A DNA stretch of 64,000 nucleotides from a virus. Lineage: Duplodnaviria > Heunggongvirae > Uroviricota > Caudoviricetes. Both the position numbers and the translations under genes were made by a program. This document shows positions 240-26,568 of the stretch, piece after piece. The stretch lies in IMG/VR virus record IMGVR_UViG_2681813233_000007; one strand, 5' to 3'. The notes under the pieces were generated by a model. That model was given only the letters and a program-made list of their open reading frames with translations, was not told where the DNA came from and ran no database searches. The first letter of the stretch is position 1, and the number at the start of each line of letters is the position of its first letter.

Positions 240-815
240 ATGTTAATGGCGAACGATAACGCATATGCAGAAGAAGATCTCATTTTGAGTGACTTCATAG
301 GGAAGCGGGAACGCTGGACCCAAAAGCGAGAGGAACTTTACGCCTCATTAGTTCGCAAAGGCGTCAATATCGAAACCGCACAGAGCGGCGATATGACAGT
401 GGTAAGCGTTGGATTGCACGGTGTAAGCGTGTCAGCAATCAATCATGAGCCATACGTTGCGTTATCCGAGTCAATGGTAAGGTTAGTTAAGTTCCTGAAG
501 TACACAGAAGCGAATAATGTAATCATTGGCAAAAAGAATATCCCTTTTTCCTCGGCTTTTTACTGGATGATGAAAGGGCTTGATGCCCGGCGGACATCAT
601 GGCCTAAAGGGAGCTATATATCGATGTTCCGTGGCAGCATTGGCAGCAAAGAAAAGCTCTTCGAATTCTTGCCGGAAGAGGCATTCGATATTGTGGAAGG
701 GTGCGATGTGATGGTGATGCCTCGCCTGGTAATGATGAATGGGGATTTACAGGCGCAGACAGACTGGTTTGCAACTGGTGTGGATATTATCGCGACTGAC
801 TGGGAGGCTTTCTGA
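240..815 (+). CDS. hypothetical protein with C-terminal DUF2829-like (Tad2-like) domain
   Basis: ORF track; AAGGAG RBS before ATG; C-terminal motifs FYWMMKGLDARRTSWPKG ... IIATDWEAF shared with 8462..9163 and 24787..25728. Confidence 0.55.
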   Translation: MLMANDNAYAEEDLILSDFIGKRERWTQKREELYASLVRKGVNIETAQSGDMTVVSVGLHGVSVSAINHEPYVALSESMVRLVKFLKYTEANNVIIGKKNIPFSSAFYWMMKGLDARRTSWPKGSYISMFRGSIGSKEKLFEFLPEEAFDIVEGCDVMVMPRLVMMNGDLQAQTDWFATGVDIIATDWEAF

Positions 816-8461: not shown

Positions 8462-9163
8462 ATGAATTACATGACAACGAAAGAGCTTTTTAAGTTCCTT
8501 CCCAAATACAAAGCTCACAAAAACGTTAGTGCATCGAAAATCAAAAATGTTGTTATTTTCGGAGTAACTGCTTCCCCACTTTGGGGCTGCATCGAACTCG
8601 TTGAACCAAAAGGGGCAACAGTTTGTGTTGACGCAATTTTTTTACAAAAACACCGACCAAAAACTGGCGGGTATCTGATCGTTTATGAAAACGGTTATCT
8701 GTTCTATGCCCCGGAGAAACCATTTGAGCAATGCTATGGCCTGGTTAACGACGCCTCCGAAAATGGGGTATCGCTCAGCATTGAAGGTCACAATGGGGTG
8801 ACATTCATTACAGCCAGGGACGTAACTATTTCTGCTGGCGGTATCGCTACTCTACAAGAAGAAATCGACCTTGAAGCAGCCGACTTTTCTGACGCGCTGA
8901 TGTGGCTGAAGGATGGCAAGAAAGTTGCTCGACGCGGGTGGAACGGCGAAAACCAATTCTGCTGGCTGGTTCCTGACAAACAGGGTGCTTCAAGACTAAC
9001 CCCTATAAAACATGCCGCAAACGGAGAGCTTGAAATCAATTTCGACTCTCCTCTTGCTCCTTATGGTGCGCATTTCGTTTTGAAAAATGCACAAGGTGTA
9101 GTTGTTCCATGGATGCCTTCTGTAGGTGACCTGCTGGCATGTGACTGGTTTGTAGTGGAGTGA
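8462..9163 (+). CDS. protein with C-terminal DUF2829-like (Tad2-like) domain
   Basis: C-terminal ALMWLKDGKKVARRGWNG ... DLLACDWFVVE; N-terminal ~140 aa of unknown function. Confidence 0.55.
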   Translation: MNYMTTKELFKFLPKYKAHKNVSASKIKNVVIFGVTASPLWGCIELVEPKGATVCVDAIFLQKHRPKTGGYLIVYENGYLFYAPEKPFEQCYGLVNDASENGVSLSIEGHNGVTFITARDVTISAGGIATLQEEIDLEAADFSDALMWLKDGKKVARRGWNGENQFCWLVPDKQGASRLTPIKHAANGELEINFDSPLAPYGAHFVLKNAQGVVVPWMPSVGDLLACDWFVVE

Positions 9164-19681: not shown

Positions 19682-19902
19682 TCTTCATCCTCCAAATCGG
19701 CAACGGCCTCCATCACATCAGAACCGCGAATAAACTCAAAAGCACGGCAAGCCATTTCAAACACCTGTTGTTCTTGCGGATGCGGTGACTCCCAATACTT
19801 AAAACCAGGTCGATGCTCGTAACCCATCATGGAATAAAAATCGCCAGCAAGTTCAATCGCGGCATCAACAAGTTCGCGATTTGTCATCGTCTGTTCTGTC
19901 AT
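19678..19902 (-). CDS. hypothetical protein
   Basis: ORF track, coupled. Confidence 0.45.
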   Translation of the reverse strand: MTEQTMTNRELVDAAIELAGDFYSMMGYEHRPGFKYWESPHPQEQQVFEMACRAFEFIRGSDVMEAVADLEDEE

Positions 19903-20174
19903 TTTGTTTTCTCCTGTCTGAACATCACTATCATCAGGTCGCCTTTTGTCGCTATCCTGGCTGTTGTGCCTGGTTCTATGCGGCTAAGTTCAAATGCGTC
20001 ATAGAACGCTTCTAATGCCTTCTGGCGTAGTTCCTGTTTGCGCCGTTTTTTCCACTGTTTTAGGAAAATGGAACCCAGCCATCGCCATGTACTGGACATG
20101 ATGTAAAGCCAACCGAGAAGTGCCAGTCCGGTATTTAGGGCCGTATCGATCGTTATCGTGGTGTCGATATTCAC
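19899..20174 (-). CDS. hypothetical membrane protein
   Basis: ORF track; one hydrophobic helix. Confidence 0.45.
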   Translation of the reverse strand: MNIDTTITIDTALNTGLALLGWLYIMSSTWRWLGSIFLKQWKKRRKQELRQKALEAFYDAFELSRIEPGTTARIATKGDLMIVMFRQEKTK

Positions 20175-20419
20175 TGTGGAGGCTCCTGCTTTTCTGCCTT
20201 CAATACCATGCGAGAACCATCATCCAGCTCCCAATTAATTTCACCGCCTTCAGCCATGACTAGATGCCAAACGAGTTGTGCGGCCTCGTTGGTTACATCG
20301 CGACCGCGATCATTGCCGACACGACGTTTTGTTCCATCCCCTAAGTCACGCATTTTTGCCAACACGATTGTTTTTGATAGCGGTGAAAAACCAAGCTGTA
20401 GTCGTGCTGAATTGCTCAC
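20171..20419 (-). CDS. hypothetical protein
   Basis: ORF track. Confidence 0.45.
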   Translation of the reverse strand: MSNSARLQLGFSPLSKTIVLAKMRDLGDGTKRRVGNDRGRDVTNEAAQLVWHLVMAEGGEINWELDDGSRMVLKAEKQEPPQ

Positions 20420-21087
20420 TGTTTGCCTCCTTTGCGAATCCGGGCGGCTAACTCGTCACATATGTGCGTCAAAGAGAAAAGTTTGATTGATGGGTGTTCG
20501 CGCATCATCTCCAATCCCTGCGCCCGGACTTCAGCTAGGAAAGCATCAGTGGTTGGCGTTTCAGGTATCTGTCTCCTCATCCGTTCTACTGCATGATTGA
20601 ACCCGAAGTCTTCCGCGAGAGATACGTCATCCATATTGTCATTGTCATCCTCAATATCCAGTGGTTCTGGAATTGCAGACTTTATTCCCGCATTCTCCGC
20701 CGCCAGCGCCGCGCGATTACCCTCCAGCTCTGCAATGCGCTGTTTTGCGGTATCAAGTTCAATCGATAATTTTTCCAACTGCTCTTTATGCTTCTTGTAT
20801 TCCTGATATGCGTGCCAGGACTGACCTTTGCGCACACTATCAGTAATATCAGTAATCTGTTCTGGTGTTAGCGTAGTCAGTGGCTGTGCTGGGAAAATCA
20901 GCACTTTCCCGGAATCCCAATCAAAACCAGCGTGAATTGACTGAACCTCAATTGAAGGTGTTGAACCAACGCTGCCAGGCGAATGAACAACGATCGTTAC
21001 ATCCATATCGCGACGATGGCTGTGGTTATTGGACAAAATACGATTCACCAACTCAGAAAATTTGGAGAATTTCATGCGGAGCCTCAA
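20416..21087 (-). CDS. hypothetical protein
   Basis: ORF track; C-terminal TDAFLAEVRA segment shared with 21491..21994. Confidence 0.5.
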   Translation of the reverse strand: MRLRMKFSKFSELVNRILSNNHSHRRDMDVTIVVHSPGSVGSTPSIEVQSIHAGFDWDSGKVLIFPAQPLTTLTPEQITDITDSVRKGQSWHAYQEYKKHKEQLEKLSIELDTAKQRIAELEGNRAALAAENAGIKSAIPEPLDIEDDNDNMDDVSLAEDFGFNHAVERMRRQIPETPTTDAFLAEVRAQGLEMMREHPSIKLFSLTHICDELAARIRKGGKQ

Positions 21088-21494
21088 TATGCAAAATAGA
21101 CAGTTGCCACACCGTTATAGTGATCAAACGATACGGCGTTTACTTCATAGCTGGCAGGAAGCTTCGAGCCGAGAACGTATCCGGGCCACGTTTTCCATGG
21201 AATTTCTCTACTCTCACTATCCCCATATACCGTACATCCAAGCGAACCTACAGCCTCGTCAGAACGTTTGCCGCATGTTATGAAACCTATATTTTTCTTG
21301 CTGGCCTTAATGGCGATTGGGTGAACACTGGCTGATGCATTGGCAGCACGCTGTGACTGTTGGTTTGCGATATTCGCAGAGTTCGCAGCAGCTACAGCAG
21401 CCGTGGTCGCGGCGGTAGATGCCACAATAACTGCTGAAGCCTGCGCCTGTTGGGTAATGGTCAGCAATGCCGCCACAAAAATCATCTTCTTCAC
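21084..21494 (-). CDS. secreted protein (signal peptide)
   Basis: MKKMIFVAALLTITQQAQASA. Confidence 0.5.
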   Translation of the reverse strand: MKKMIFVAALLTITQQAQASAVIVASTAATTAAVAAANSANIANQQSQRAANASASVHPIAIKASKKNIGFITCGKRSDEAVGSLGCTVYGDSESREIPWKTWPGYVLGSKLPASYEVNAVSFDHYNGVATVYFAY

Positions 21495-21994
21495 TTGTCA
21501 GCTCCTTTGCGAATCTGTTCCGCCCATTCTTCAAGGGATTTCTCCGCATATTCACCGGACAGGCCATCAATCGGGTGCGATTCATTAGCCAACTCTTCTT
21601 TCGCTGACAGAATCATGCGCGTAACGTCGAAAACTTCACGTAAAGACTTATTGATAAATCCGTGGTTGAAAGCAGCAGCAAGACGGCTTGCGGTATAGTT
21701 AATCCCCTCGTTGCGAGCCTCCGCACGAATTTCAGCCAGGAAAGCATCGGTGACTGGCATATTTCCTGTTGCCTTCATGGCCTCCAAAATAACCAGAACG
21801 CCATCTCTCCCTACCTCCTCGCAGATAACCTCGGTGTTGTCGCCAACAACATCGCAGAATGCCTGAACTGCTTTACGAGCAAGTGCATTCTCCGCCGCCA
21901 GCGCAGCACACGCTTTCTCAAGTCGGGAAATTTCCGTTACATACTCAGCGTTACGCTCTGCCAGTTGTGCGGGCGTTAAACCTTCAGACTTCAT
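21491..21994 (-). CDS. hypothetical protein
   Basis: ORF track; paralogous segment with 20416..21087. Confidence 0.5.
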   Translation of the reverse strand: MKSEGLTPAQLAERNAEYVTEISRLEKACAALAAENALARKAVQAFCDVVGDNTEVICEEVGRDGVLVILEAMKATGNMPVTDAFLAEIRAEARNEGINYTASRLAAAFNHGFINKSLREVFDVTRMILSAKEELANESHPIDGLSGEYAEKSLEEWAEQIRKGADK

Positions 21995-22301
21995 ACACTC
22001 TCCTTTCGAAATAAACGTACTGATTAATCATGCCCAGGGGCATTTCGAGTTTTTCCGCGATCTCACGGCGGGGAACGCCACACTGATGAAGCTGCCGCGC
22101 CAGCTCTATATCGCTCTGCCGGTATTTGGCTGACTGGTGAAAGTCACCTTTCAGAATCATGCTGATCCCAAGCTCTCGCGCTTTAGTCCTGACGGCATCA
22201 CCGGTACGACCGATCAGCTTCCCAATACTCTCGACCGTCATAGTTCCGGCGCACTGGCGGAGTATCATGATTTCTGCCCTTCCCCATCCCCGCCAGCTCA
22301 C
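21984..22301 (-). CDS. hypothetical DNA-binding-like protein
   Basis: ORF track. Confidence 0.45.
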   Translation of the reverse strand: MSWRGWGRAEIMILRQCAGTMTVESIGKLIGRTGDAVRTKARELGISMILKGDFHQSAKYRQSDIELARQLHQCGVPRREIAEKLEMPLGMINQYVYFERRVYEV

Positions 22302-23760: not shown

Positions 23761-24091
23761 TTTTCTAACATTTTAAGTTGAATTGGAAATTTCTCCGATG
23801 TACATTCACTACCGATTGGCACACCGGTCAACTTTTTGAGACAAACTGTTTAGTTTTTCGTATTATTGCCGCCGCCATACCTATGGCGGTGCAATATAGG
23901 TGGCTGAAAAGCCCCCGTTGACTCACGGTGTTCCAGCCTTTATTGCGCCGCCACCAGACCGTGGAACAGTCGATGGCGGCTCCGAAAGCAAGGAGTCACT
24001 ACACTATGAACAACTACAGTCTTTTCCCATCACTCGTCGTCCACCACTCACGCGATAATCTGCATTCTTTACTCGCGCTGGGGGTGTCAAA

Positions 24092-24258
24092 ATGACTGTT
24101 CGCTACCTCAACTTTCAAATCAAGAACATTACTGGCGGTTGCTATGACTGGTTTGTCACTCTCGGAAAAGAAGTGATCACCGGGAAGCTGGATGAAGTGA
24201 AAGCTAAAGCAATGGCCTACGCCTGCAAGCAAGCCCGGAAAAAATCCGCCAAAGCATA
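24092..24258 (+). CDS. small ORF (55 aa), coupled to a 27-codon upstream ORF at 24007..24094
   Basis: Own reading; below the 60-aa track cut-off; stop/start overlap TGATG-like. Confidence 0.3.
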
Positions 24259-24299
24259 AAATACTGACTGTTGCGCCCTGGCATTATCGTGGGGTATAT

Positions 24300-24386
24300 T
24301 TCTACGGCACCTTAGAAAAACGGGTGCCGGGATTGGAACCCCGGATAATGTCAAAGGCGACACAGACGCCGAAAGCGTCTTTTTTT
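24300..24386 (+). ncRNA. candidate small structured RNA ending in an intrinsic terminator (c4-like antisense regulator candidate)
   Basis: Hairpins GGCACC...GGTGCC and CCGGG...CCCGG, then GACGC-CGAAA-GCGTC + T7; near-complement of hairpin 2 at 24489-24500. Confidence 0.3.
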
Positions 24387-24571
24387 GTGTCATGCCATCG
24401 CACAGCCATACGTAGCGTTTAGCTCAGAGATCAATGGTAGTGCTGGCTGGGCTGCCGAAAGGCAGGCCGGTTCCCTTTGACGCCGGTAGTTCCAACCCAG
24501 TCAGTGCTACCGCCATTGAGATTGGAACCTCACGCGGTAGCTCCTTAACTTAGTCAAAGGAGGCTGCCAAT

Positions 24572-24787
24572 ATGGCTACTATCCCCACCCCAACTCATTC
24601 TGAATTTATCTGGCGTTTCTATTCCTGCCAAAAACACCTCTATATCTGCGTCATGGCTGCTACCGAAGCAGAAGCGCGCTCATGCATTCCCGAAGAACCC
24701 TGCATTTTTGCTGCTCGCTTCACTCTTGATGCGATGGAGATCCTCAATTACTGGAATCTGCCGATGAACTGCGTGGAGGTGCACTGA
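24572..24787 (+). CDS. small ORF coupled to antirepressor (icd-like position)
   Basis: AAGGAGG RBS; stop overlaps antirepressor ATG. Confidence 0.45.
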   Translation: MATIPTPTHSEFIWRFYSCQKHLYICVMAATEAEARSCIPEEPCIFAARFTLDAMEILNYWNLPMNCVEVH

Positions 24788-25728
24788 TGAATCTGTCCAT
24801 CTCTCAAAAAGCGACAATGACCAGTATTGAGATCGCGGAACTGGTAGGTAAGCGTCATGATAATGTGAAGCGTACCATTGAAGTATTAACTAAAGGTGGT
24901 GTCATTCAATTTCCTCAAATTGAGGAAATTGAAAATAAACAATCAGTTGGCCCTCGTCGATTTTCCAAGGCTTACATCTTTGAAGGCGAACAAGGCAAGC
25001 GTGACAGTATCATTGTCGTCGCACAGCTTTCTCCCGAATTTACCGCCCGGCTGGTGGACCGCTGGCGCGAACTGGAGAATGCCCGGGTACAGTTAAAATC
25101 AAAAGCCGAAATCCTAGCTGAAATGGCGCAAATGCATCTTGAGCATGAACGCCGGATCAACGCCGTTAATGCCCAGGTAGCCGAAGTATCGGCACAAGTG
25201 TCCAAAGTCGCTGAAACCGTCGAGCAAATCAAGAAAGGCAATATGCCGGAAGGCTACATTGGCTACCGCCAGCTGGCGGCGAAATGCGGCCTGACTGAAG
25301 CCAAATGTCGCAACCTTGTCAACGCTTACCGGATTCCCACCGATACACATGAGTTTTTGACCCCCGATGGCTTGCTTGCGCGACGCTCCATTGTGGCCCT
25401 GGCCCCCTTCCGGAAAGCCTTTAAGCAGGTGATGTCGGAGGCAGAACCACGCAATAAACGCTGGTATCATCCAAAGATGGGGATGTTTCAGGCAATCCAC
25501 CATCCTGTGCCTGAAAGTCCAAAGGCAAACCTGTCGTTGCATACCGCCAGAGAGAGGATTAAAACAGGGTATGCAATCGTATGCCGTCGAGCATCTTGGC
25601 CTGAAGGTGTATGGGTATGGCCCGAAGGTGGATCACGAAAGCACTGGCGCACTATCCGGGATGGGAAAATCCATGCGATTGATTTAGCTCCAGAGGATGT
25701 TGTTGCTACGGACTGGATTGTTAGTTAA
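24787..25728 (+). CDS. Rha-family antirepressor-like protein with C-terminal DUF2829-like domain
   Basis: N-terminal MTSIEIAELVGKRHDNVKRTIEVL (Rha-type); C-terminal IKTGYAIVCRRASWPEG ... VVATDWIVS. Confidence 0.75.
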   Translation: MNLSISQKATMTSIEIAELVGKRHDNVKRTIEVLTKGGVIQFPQIEEIENKQSVGPRRFSKAYIFEGEQGKRDSIIVVAQLSPEFTARLVDRWRELENARVQLKSKAEILAEMAQMHLEHERRINAVNAQVAEVSAQVSKVAETVEQIKKGNMPEGYIGYRQLAAKCGLTEAKCRNLVNAYRIPTDTHEFLTPDGLLARRSIVALAPFRKAFKQVMSEAEPRNKRWYHPKMGMFQAIHHPVPESPKANLSLHTARERIKTGYAIVCRRASWPEGVWVWPEGGSRKHWRTIRDGKIHAIDLAPEDVVATDWIVS

Positions 25729-25736
25729 TTACTGTT

Positions 25737-25758
25737 GCCCCGGCCTGTCCGGGGCTTT
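25737..25758 (+). terminator. hairpin after antirepressor gene
   Basis: GCCCCGG-CCTGT-CCGGGGC + TTT. Confidence 0.4.
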
Positions 25759-26208
25759 AACTACTAAATAACCGGATTCTCCGCACGATGAAGAAAATAG
25801 ATTTCACTTACTCTGCTGCCACAATCCAGCGACGTTTCAGTCTCATAAGGGAAGTGGAACTATCAAAAAACTGGTATCAAATTCTACTGGATGAAGAGTT
25901 TTCACTGATGGTTATAGCATAAAAATTGGCTATGCCGAATGACCGGCACAAGGTCATAGCCAGCCTGGATCTGGTGACAAACAGATACTGGGAATCCGAG
26001 GAACTACTTGAAGTTGGCTTGATACGCGAGATGATAGAACAGGCTGTTCCCCTCCACTTACAGCAACCATAATTGAAAGGTCTTAACGATAGTCTGCCAC
26101 GAATAGTTACTTTCACTGCCTAAAGTTATTTAATTGCATTACAAAGTGTAAATTAGTAACATTAGAATCTCACACAGCACTATAACTATATGTTTTTTAT
26201 GTAAAAGG

Positions 26209-26568
26209 ATGATAATCGTGGCTACTAAAATTAAACTTGAAAACCCTCAAACTGGCGAATCAATCACCGGTTTTTATGGTTTTTCCTGGACTACATTCTT
26301 GTTTGGTGCTTTTCCAGCTTTGTTCAGGAAAGACTTTATAACTTTTATTGGGGTATTCGTAGTGATGCTGATACTGGCATTCCTCACAGCCGGAATTGGC
26401 CCGTGGATTGCCTCATTTATCTGGGCGTTCATGTATAATAAATATTTCACCGTAAATAAGATAAAACAAGGCTTCATTTTTGCTGGTTCTCACACAGAAA
26501 ATGAGTTGGCTGCTAGCAAGCTAGGATTGTCATTAAATCAAAACAACTGCAAAACTATTACCGAGTAA
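26209..26568 (+). CDS. small membrane protein (2 TM helices)
   Basis: ORF track; AT-rich; GTG start 6 nt in is possible. Confidence 0.5.
   Translation: MIIVATKIKLENPQTGESITGFYGFSWTTFLFGAFPALFRKDFITFIGVFVVMLILAFLTAGIGPWIASFIWAFMYNKYFTVNKIKQGFIFAGSHTENELAASKLGLSLNQNNCKTITE

Follow-up and report, generated by a model that had tools for sequence, protein, structure and literature searches.

What does a module resembling a phage-encoded sponge for immune signals do at the end of an antirepressor gene? This question is raised by ant, a gene within a 64,000-nucleotide stretch of viral DNA (Caudoviricetes; IMG/VR virus record IMGVR_UViG_2681813233_000007), the whole of which is referred to here as the window. 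Its product of 313 amino acids (aa) is very probably composed of a Rha-type core and a minimal, divergent C-terminal module homologous to Tad2 (Thoeris anti-defense 2; PF11195, formerly DUF2829). The gene as such is present in many sequence records, under annotations as Ant or as a Rha-family regulator. What appears to be new, judging from sequence, is the recruitment of a sponge-fold module, both in fused and in split form, into an antirepressor operon.

Homology of the C-terminal module

A sequence-only reading of the window had described an antirepressor-like protein with a Rha-type N-terminal domain, ending in the same DUF2829-like module as the products of two other genes (240..815 and 8462..9163). 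The open reading frame (ORF) given there, 24787..25728 on the plus strand with 313 codons for aa, was reproduced exactly and starts with ATG. Domain annotation with profile hidden Markov models (HMMs), which that reading had named as a check, bore out the first domain and fell short for the second. PF09669 (Phage_pRha) matched residues 11-98 above threshold (E 3.4e-9; 37.6 bits, cut-off 29.9) along the entire profile (positions 1-91 of 91). PF11195 gave no match to the whole Ant protein in Pfam, and the isolated tail, with E 0.35-0.44 and 11.6-11.9 bits at a cut-off of 25, stayed outside the family. For this isolated tail PF11195 was the only Pfam family reported, and the match covered positions 4-72 of 73.

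Direct comparison by BLASTP recovered only the motifs RR(A/T)SWP(E/K)G and ATDW between the tail and the 240..815 product, and nothing between the tail and the 8462..9163 product. A search with the 79-aa tail in a word-indexed protein database returned near-identical fragments only. When a profile of the tail was compared with 1.84 billion protein representatives, just five matches were obtained, among them P0128 (E 6.7e-6), a protein of 96 aa that stands free in a phage-plasmid from Raoultella. P0128 is the subfamily member with the best match to PF11195 (E 6.2e-5; 23.9 bits, cut-off 25). Since the tail profile matches P0128 and P0128 matches PF11195, this protein forms a bridge from the tail to the Tad2 family. 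Altogether, six of the eight subfamily members match PF11195 weakly, and for most members no other family was reported.

For profile-profile comparison the subfamily alignment served as hhalign query, and the template consisted of four solved Tad2 sequences together with the two other modules of the window. Against this full Tad2 alignment the subfamily reached a probability of 94.1% (E 1.3e-7, 66 columns), as compared with 0.1% for the reversed alignment and no more than 5.7% for 60 column-shuffled alignments. The subfamily members from outside the window, aligned with a template of the four solved Tad2 sequences only (PDB-only), were matched with 80% over 67 columns.

Structure prediction of the C-terminal domain, the second check named by the sequence-only reading, pointed in the same direction. 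The module was modeled by AlphaFold2 (AF2) from an alignment of the eight subfamily sequences containing no canonical Tad2; a MAFFT alignment with the two canonical modules of the window mis-registered strands 3 and 4 and was left out of the prediction. The resulting model has a predicted local distance difference test score (pLDDT) of 72, with about 80 in the core, and its order of helix, four strands, short helix and last strand is that of the Tad2 fold. In a Foldseek search of 350,542 PDB chains, SPO1 Tad2 occupied ranks 1-3 (probability 0.99, 0.99, and 0.96; E ~1e-2), and solved Tad2 proteins (SPO1 Tad2, 8SME/8SMF; HgmTad2/AcrIIA7, 8KBI; ModTad2, 9EIB) constitute the top structural matches of the module. 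Viral models (BFVD) retrieved by the same program were mostly DUF2829/Tad2-like proteins, some of them minimal with a length of just 65-66 aa. The likeness to Tad2 extends from the N-terminal helix, the five-stranded antiparallel sheet and the short helix before the last strand to the small size and the phage origin, as well as to the subfamily motif R..W ... D....DW. The latter lies in register with the R-x-x-W and D-x-x-x-x-D-W of Tad2, including the ligand contacts W25 and D79. In contrast to Tad2, the module lacks the beta2-beta3 insertion and helix alpha2, possesses an invariant Cys-Arg-Arg of its own subfamily, and is fused to a 237-aa regulatory protein, whereas Tad2 is a free sponge of about 90 aa.

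Several results count against this relationship and have to be set beside the missed Pfam threshold. Sequence searches of the PDB with protein and profile queries delivered noise and no Tad2. Small hand-built Tad2 HMMs ranked the tail fourth to fifth among 749 ORF segments of the window at a non-significant E of 2-5, and hhalign gave only 52% for the subfamily against the PDB-only template. Taken singly, the homology scores are modest, which is to be expected when about 50 residues can be aligned, and it is the agreement of the methods that carries the conclusion. On this basis, the module is predicted to belong, as a remote member, to the Tad2-like/DUF2829 fold superfamily. The statement that it is the same module as in 240..815 and 8462..9163 consequently stands at the level of fold and superfamily, as indicated by hhalign, Foldseek, and P0128, and does not stand at the level of PF11195 membership. 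A C-terminus unrelated to DUF2829, the outcome which the sequence-only reading had named as contrary to its proposal, is not what was found, though the Pfam threshold was missed.

The ant operon, its split paralogue, and free-standing relatives

Positions 24000-26500 align from end to end with Escherichia phage D6 at 94.3% identity. D6 is a circular plasmid prophage related to P1, and ant corresponds to its orf82, annotated as 'anti-repressor Ant; similar to Rha/Roi/KilA'. Congruent with this annotation, the full-length protein matches phrog_63 'anti-repressor Ant' in PHROG (E 1.4e-63, residues 2-313). More than 100 protein clusters share 78-100% identity with the Ant fusion. They come from E. 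coli and from Salmonella, for the most part on contigs ~90 kb long; every one goes by the name 'Rha family transcriptional regulator', and a precomputed Tad2-like domain is listed for none. A connection of a Rha/Ant protein or an immI operon with DUF2829/Tad2 was found neither in Pfam nor in NCBI names nor by full-text search of papers.

Based on the c4 RNA match (Table 1) and the Icd family match (NF033153 phage_ICD_like, E 1.7e-12, 47.2 bits, cut-off 25), ant is the final cistron of an immI-type operon of c4 antisense RNA, icd, and ant in a D6-like, P1-related plasmid prophage of E. coli. The order of these elements is the one characteristic of this type: c4 RNA and icd are followed by ant in last position, with the stop codon of icd and the start codon of ant overlapping in TGATG. 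The ATG of ant is preceded by a GGAGGTG Shine-Dalgarno sequence. In the leader, Rfam recognized the Hfq-binding small RNA isrK at 24307-24385 (62.7 bits, gathering score 50), overlapping the region of the c4 target sites (a1/b1), for which the c4-a1b1 model gave a sub-threshold match at 24294-24347 (22.4 bits). A second C4-like match on the plus strand, at 23879-23958, lies ~550 nucleotides upstream of the true c4 and remains below the gathering score (40.2 bits versus 45); a promoter-like site at 23838-23866 directly precedes it.

In P1, c4 RNA is the repressor RNA of immI and blocks the synthesis of both Icd and Ant, the latter being an antirepressor that counteracts the C1 repressor (PMC8546580). 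D6-like elements retain a C1 homologue and two c4/icd regions (PMC6799933). The operon of the window has the same grammar as P1 immI, including the overlapping ant cistron and the setting in a P1-related plasmid prophage with a C1 homologue, and its expression logic may be expected to follow that of P1. It differs in that its Ant is of the Rha/Roi/KilA type, a distinction from P1 Ant which is drawn by the D6 annotation only, and in that D6-type phages carry two such operons. P1 Ant is not known to have a Tad2-like part. By this analogy, the window Ant would act as an antirepressor, as synteny, PHROG 63, and the GenBank name suggest. The earlier proposal of a Rha and DUF2829-like architecture in an antirepressor-like protein is supported by the domain matches, and its antirepressor component is strengthened by the c4 RNA-icd-ant context.

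The core of Ant (aa 1-237) comprises further elements between the Rha domain and the module. Single-sequence AF2 prediction of the full protein yielded a pLDDT of 49 overall, and the only confident part was a helix of residues 83-149, which probably forms a coiled coil and may mediate oligomerization. The middle domain is matched by phrog_6610 (residues 114-236, E 3.6e-24) and lies largely within the match to phrog_1726 'anti-repressor' (residues 4-222), and Pfam helix-turn-helix (HTH) matches to it are weak only. With its Rha domain above threshold and its full-length match to PHROG 63, the protein resembles the Ant/Rha/Bro/KilA regulators, a class for which Iyer, Koonin and Aravind are said to have described in 2002 the shuffling of N- and C-terminal modules as typical. 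It departs from this class by its sponge-fold C-terminal module, in place of the usual ANT/KilAC or ORF6C. The linker between core and module has a pLDDT below 50 in the AF2 model.

The closest relative of this architecture is a split one. In D6, a second locus has the order repL, icd (orf19), Ant (orf18, 235 aa), and orf17 (65 aa, 'hypothetical'), with orf17 overlapping orf18. According to alignment A7, orf18 corresponds to aa 1-237 of the window protein with 69% identity and orf17 to aa 249-313 with 42% identity; the end of orf18 coincides with the end of the Ant core. The pair shares with the window gene the context of c4 followed by icd and the matching parts, and differs in being encoded by two overlapping genes without the 11-aa linker. 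The same arrangement was seen on a P1-like contig, where the free 65-aa homologue P0134 directly follows a 242-aa Rha protein with a stop/start overlap of TGATG; a separate Shine-Dalgarno sequence, GGAGGTGA, belongs to the ORF of P0134, and upstream of both genes lie an icd-like ORF and a further c4 RNA. Both loci, fused and split, occur on single contigs in IMG/VR, and neither the second locus nor a free 65-aa paralogue is present within the window. D6-type phage-plasmids have a pair of immI-like operons, with a c4 RNA, an icd, and a Rha-type Ant present in either one, and the two c4 RNAs differ.

Apart from Ant, P0128 and P0129 are free-standing in other phage-plasmids of 90-110 kb with no Ant nearby. 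They occupy a syntenic spot (L002/L003, 6001-6291; L047, 4001-4207) in a phage-plasmid family distinct from the D6 type, found in Raoultella and relatives; the neighboring genes are small and uncharacterized ORFs, partition genes (ParM/StbA), and one that is PAAR-like. Because the module exists as a separate 65-aa ORF in the second locus and as free-standing P0128/P0129, it can be regarded, as far as its distribution tells, as an autonomous functional unit. Further 'standalone' proteins of 81-98 aa (P0122-P0125) were rejected as independent genes. P0125, an 81-aa 'transcriptional regulator' on chromosomal or plasmid contigs of E. coli (L005-L007, 4001-4246), is a remnant of the Ant C-terminus beside a tyrosine integrase and insertion sequence elements. 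An internal start releasing the free module from the fused gene was likewise dismissed, as no Shine-Dalgarno sequence precedes M231 or M233.

Selection was estimated pairwise by the Nei-Gojobori method among 13 distinct alleles. The Tad2-like part showed a ratio of nonsynonymous to synonymous substitution rates (dN/dS) of 0.10 (dS 0.36, dN 0.036), the middle domain of 0.05 (dS 0.189, dN 0.010), and the Rha domain, by far the most diverged part, of 0.23 (dS 0.62, dN 0.14). These values indicate purifying selection on the fused module. An artefact of sequencing or frameshifting was rejected as the source of the fusion, the fused frame being conserved in all 13 alleles at the dN/dS given above. 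The divergence of the Rha region (24787-25086, aa 1-100) among the alleles, which far exceeds that of the remaining gene (dS about 0.2, dN 0.01-0.02), suggests mosaic exchange or a specificity-determining region. In PLSDB, the module is carried by 123 plasmids, of which 106 are from Escherichia, 15 from Salmonella, and 2 from Shigella; these are ~90 kb in size, mostly non-mobilizable, and most records contain it in two places. A scan of GTDB with one genome per species revealed no relatives of the module. With no match there as against 123 plasmids in PLSDB, the subfamily is narrow, yet common inside the D6-type phage-plasmid family.

Table 1. Positions of the ant operon, of the parts of its last product, and of related loci (window coordinates unless another record is named).
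Feature	Position	Strand	Basis or description
immI-type leader: c4 target sites (a1/b1) and isrK-like element, terminator-like hairpin 24364-24380	24294..24385	+	Rfam
c4 antisense RNA gene	24430..24517	+	Rfam RF01695 C4, 77.1 bits (gathering score 45), E 2.3e-14, full-length model
icd, 71-aa Icd-like cell-division inhibitor	24572..24787	+	NCBIfam NF033153 phage_ICD_like; D6 orf83, annotated icd
ant fusion gene: Rha-type antirepressor core and Tad2-like module	24787..25728	+	ORF; phrog_63; D6 orf82
Rha winged-helix domain, aa 11-98	24817..25080	+	PF09669
Long predicted helix, aa 83-149	25033..25233	+	single-sequence AF2, pLDDT 65-91
Middle domain of Ant core, aa 150-237, HTH-like segment ~158-180	25234..25497	+	phrog_6610, phrog_1726
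Pro-rich linker HHPVPESPKAN, aa 238-248, fusion junction	25498..25530	+	missing from both split-locus proteins (alignment)
Minimal divergent Tad2-like (DUF2829 superfamily) module, aa 249-313	25531..25725	+	topology helix, four strands, short helix, fifth strand
Tad2-like domain of 191-aa protein (240..815)	546..809	+	PF11195, E 1.1e-9, residues 103-190
Canonical Tad2-like domain of 233-aa protein (8462..9163)	8882..9157	+	PF11195, E 2.7e-21, residues 141-232
Second immI-like locus, next to repL, Ant and separate 65-aa ORF	D6 record (L046) 19789-22293; L039 1694-4198		

The ligand pocket and possible functions of the module

In SPO1 Tad2, the numbering of which is used here, glyco-cyclic ADP-ribose (gcADPR) is contacted mainly by W25, N26, W73, and D79, and additionally by I63, T65, D67, H71, S76, and T78; the mutations W21A/N22A and S90A/T92A/D93A mark the same pocket in HgmTad2. 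The equivalent positions were taken from the hhalign register and the subfamily alignment. W25 (W271), D79 (D304), the terminal D-W (D309-W310), and the Arg before the Trp are kept and invariant throughout the subfamily, and I63, D67, and H71 are kept in the window protein as I290, D292, and H296.

Other positions argue against a conserved function. N26, W73, S76, and T78 are replaced by P272, I298, A301, and E303, so that of the gcADPR contact set W25/N26/W73/D79 only two of four residues are kept, and the equivalents of D67 and H71 vary among relatives. Furthermore, the module is devoid of the beta2-beta3 insertion, which contributes the V-shaped dimer helix alpha2 in SPO1 Tad2 and the cyclic-dinucleotide pocket in HgmTad2; the gcADPR sponges of the Tad2 family are homotetramers with pockets at the protomer interfaces, and the SPO1 dimer uses this alpha2 insertion. 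Binding in the style of canonical Tad2 is disfavored, because two of the four main gcADPR contacts are replaced. An altered pocket is compatible with some ligand, as the relatives of Tad2 bind a wide range of signals: 3' cyclic ADP-ribose (3'cADPR), histidine-linked ADP-ribose (His-ADPR), N7-cADPR, cyclic CMP and cyclic UMP (cCMP/cUMP), and cyclic dinucleotides. In view of the retained W25 and D79 equivalents, ligand binding by the module is a plausible prediction.

Two further Tad2-like modules are encoded in the window, both above the Pfam threshold (Table 1). The 240..815 domain has the SWP.G form of the motif in common with the Ant tail (RRTSWPKG, ATDW). The 8462..9163 domain retains GWNG and W..PS..D and matches solved Tad2 chains with E 1e-12 to 1e-7. 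From the domain positions, all three Tad2-like modules of this phage appear to be C-terminal fusions; the N-terminal parts of the 240..815 (~100 aa) and 8462..9163 (~140 aa) products have no Pfam match. Since the same phage encodes a canonical module at 8462..9163, a different ligand or role of the divergent Ant copy is plausible.

A working model can be formulated on these grounds. The first part of the protein (aa 1-237) would be a Rha-type antirepressor core, made up of a winged helix, a long helix in a coiled coil, and a middle domain resembling an HTH, which would inactivate a C1-type master repressor by analogy with P1 Ant. Ant would be made only once the control by C1 and c4 RNA is lifted, early after infection or on induction, with its translation coupled to that of icd. 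The second part (aa 249-313), behind the Pro-rich linker, would oligomerize and sequester a nucleotide-derived host immune signal; both of these activities are surmised from the fold. In this way the module would be delivered as the phage commits to lytic growth, and its ligand would probably be unlike that of the canonical Tad2 of the same phage. We regard such a sponge function, which is drawn from the activity of Tad2 proteins, as the likeliest of the readings considered here, though tentative. The sequence-only reading had suggested that the antirepressor activity may be coupled to sensing or sequestering some small molecule, or that the protein acts in both immunity and anti-defence, and in this general form the idea may hold. 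Independent functions that are merely co-expressed are favored, because the paralogous locus encodes the module in a 65-aa ORF of its own and because it stands alone elsewhere.

Two considerations, besides the altered pocket, speak against a sponge. A sponge that acts stoichiometrically should be made in large amounts, yet the synthesis of P1 Ant is tightly limited by c4 RNA. In addition, the two Ant-linked copies per genome stem from one duplication, and the linkage to Ant counts as a single event.

The strongest competitor is a ligand-free module serving Ant itself as an oligomerization or partner-binding domain, the split form then being the small subunit of a two-component antirepressor loosely comparable with P1 Ant1/Ant2. 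A fusion in one immI locus and a translationally coupled split at the same position in the other is the usual pattern of interacting proteins. Homo-oligomerization is obligatory in Tad2 proteins, half of the residues that contact gcADPR have been exchanged in the module, and in P1 the working Ant is a heterodimer whose two subunits come from a single gene (PMC8546580). On the other hand, the Ant-linked copies are paralogues from a single duplication, and pure oligomerization leaves the free 65-aa form unexplained. Subfamily homologues occur by themselves in other phage-plasmids, without a neighboring Ant, and the equivalents of W25 and D79, which stack on or bond to the ligand, are invariant in the subfamily; because of these last two points a purely structural role is disfavored, and we consider it unlikely, though worth keeping in mind.

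Clearly less probable is that the module gates the antirepressor. Here the Tad2-like domain would sense a host immune second messenger of the Thoeris, CBASS, or Pycsar type and activate or release Ant, allowing the prophage to escape a doomed cell. The signal could, for instance, be made when another phage attacks the lysogen, so that the prophage induces as abortive-infection signaling fires, a scenario to which we give equally little credit. The fusion in cis of a ligand-binding fold to a regulator of the lysis-lysogeny decision, its purifying selection, and the presence of a canonical Tad2 (8462..9163) in the phage, by which the divergent copy may act otherwise, would suit such a sensor. 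The pocket, however, is conserved in part only. An obligatory sensor in cis is disfavored because the split paralogue exists, which means that covalent coupling is not required, and because C1 and c4 RNA already gate Ant upstream, leaving little protein in the lysogen for sensing.

Finally, convergence or chance resemblance on a small alpha/beta unit, that is, an ordinary Ant tail or an anti-CRISPR-type DUF2829 like AcrIIA7, could appeal to the sub-threshold Pfam value (E 0.35), the non-significant hand-built HMMs, the tiny subfamily with 5 representatives in 1.84 billion proteins, and the former proposal of a DUF2829 protein as anti-CRISPR. We consider it improbable, because four independent lines (the sole Pfam family, the bridge, the profile-profile comparison with its shuffles, and the two structure searches) converge in each ranking Tad2 on top, and also in view of the R..W ... 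D....DW motif being in register with that of Tad2. Moreover, the authors of the Tad2 study reinterpreted the DUF2829 anti-CRISPR as an anti-Thoeris protein.

Meaning for phage-plasmids and the Tad2 family

Characterized Tad2-family proteins are all free sponges of immune signals, and here a divergent copy is placed inside the antirepressor gene of an immunity operon. In the phage-plasmids of E. coli, Salmonella, and Shigella, this Tad2-like domain is hidden behind the public name 'Rha family transcriptional regulator'. If the module is a sponge, anti-defence would be timed to the lytic switch, and a single genome would possess up to four Tad2-like modules (the three in the window and the 65-aa ORF of the orf17 type), which suggests a specialization to different ligands. 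If it serves the antirepressor instead, a sponge fold would have been re-used as a regulatory part, possibly as a sensor. Under either reading, the natural pair of split and fused forms (D6 orf18 and orf17 versus orf82) offers a ready experimental system.

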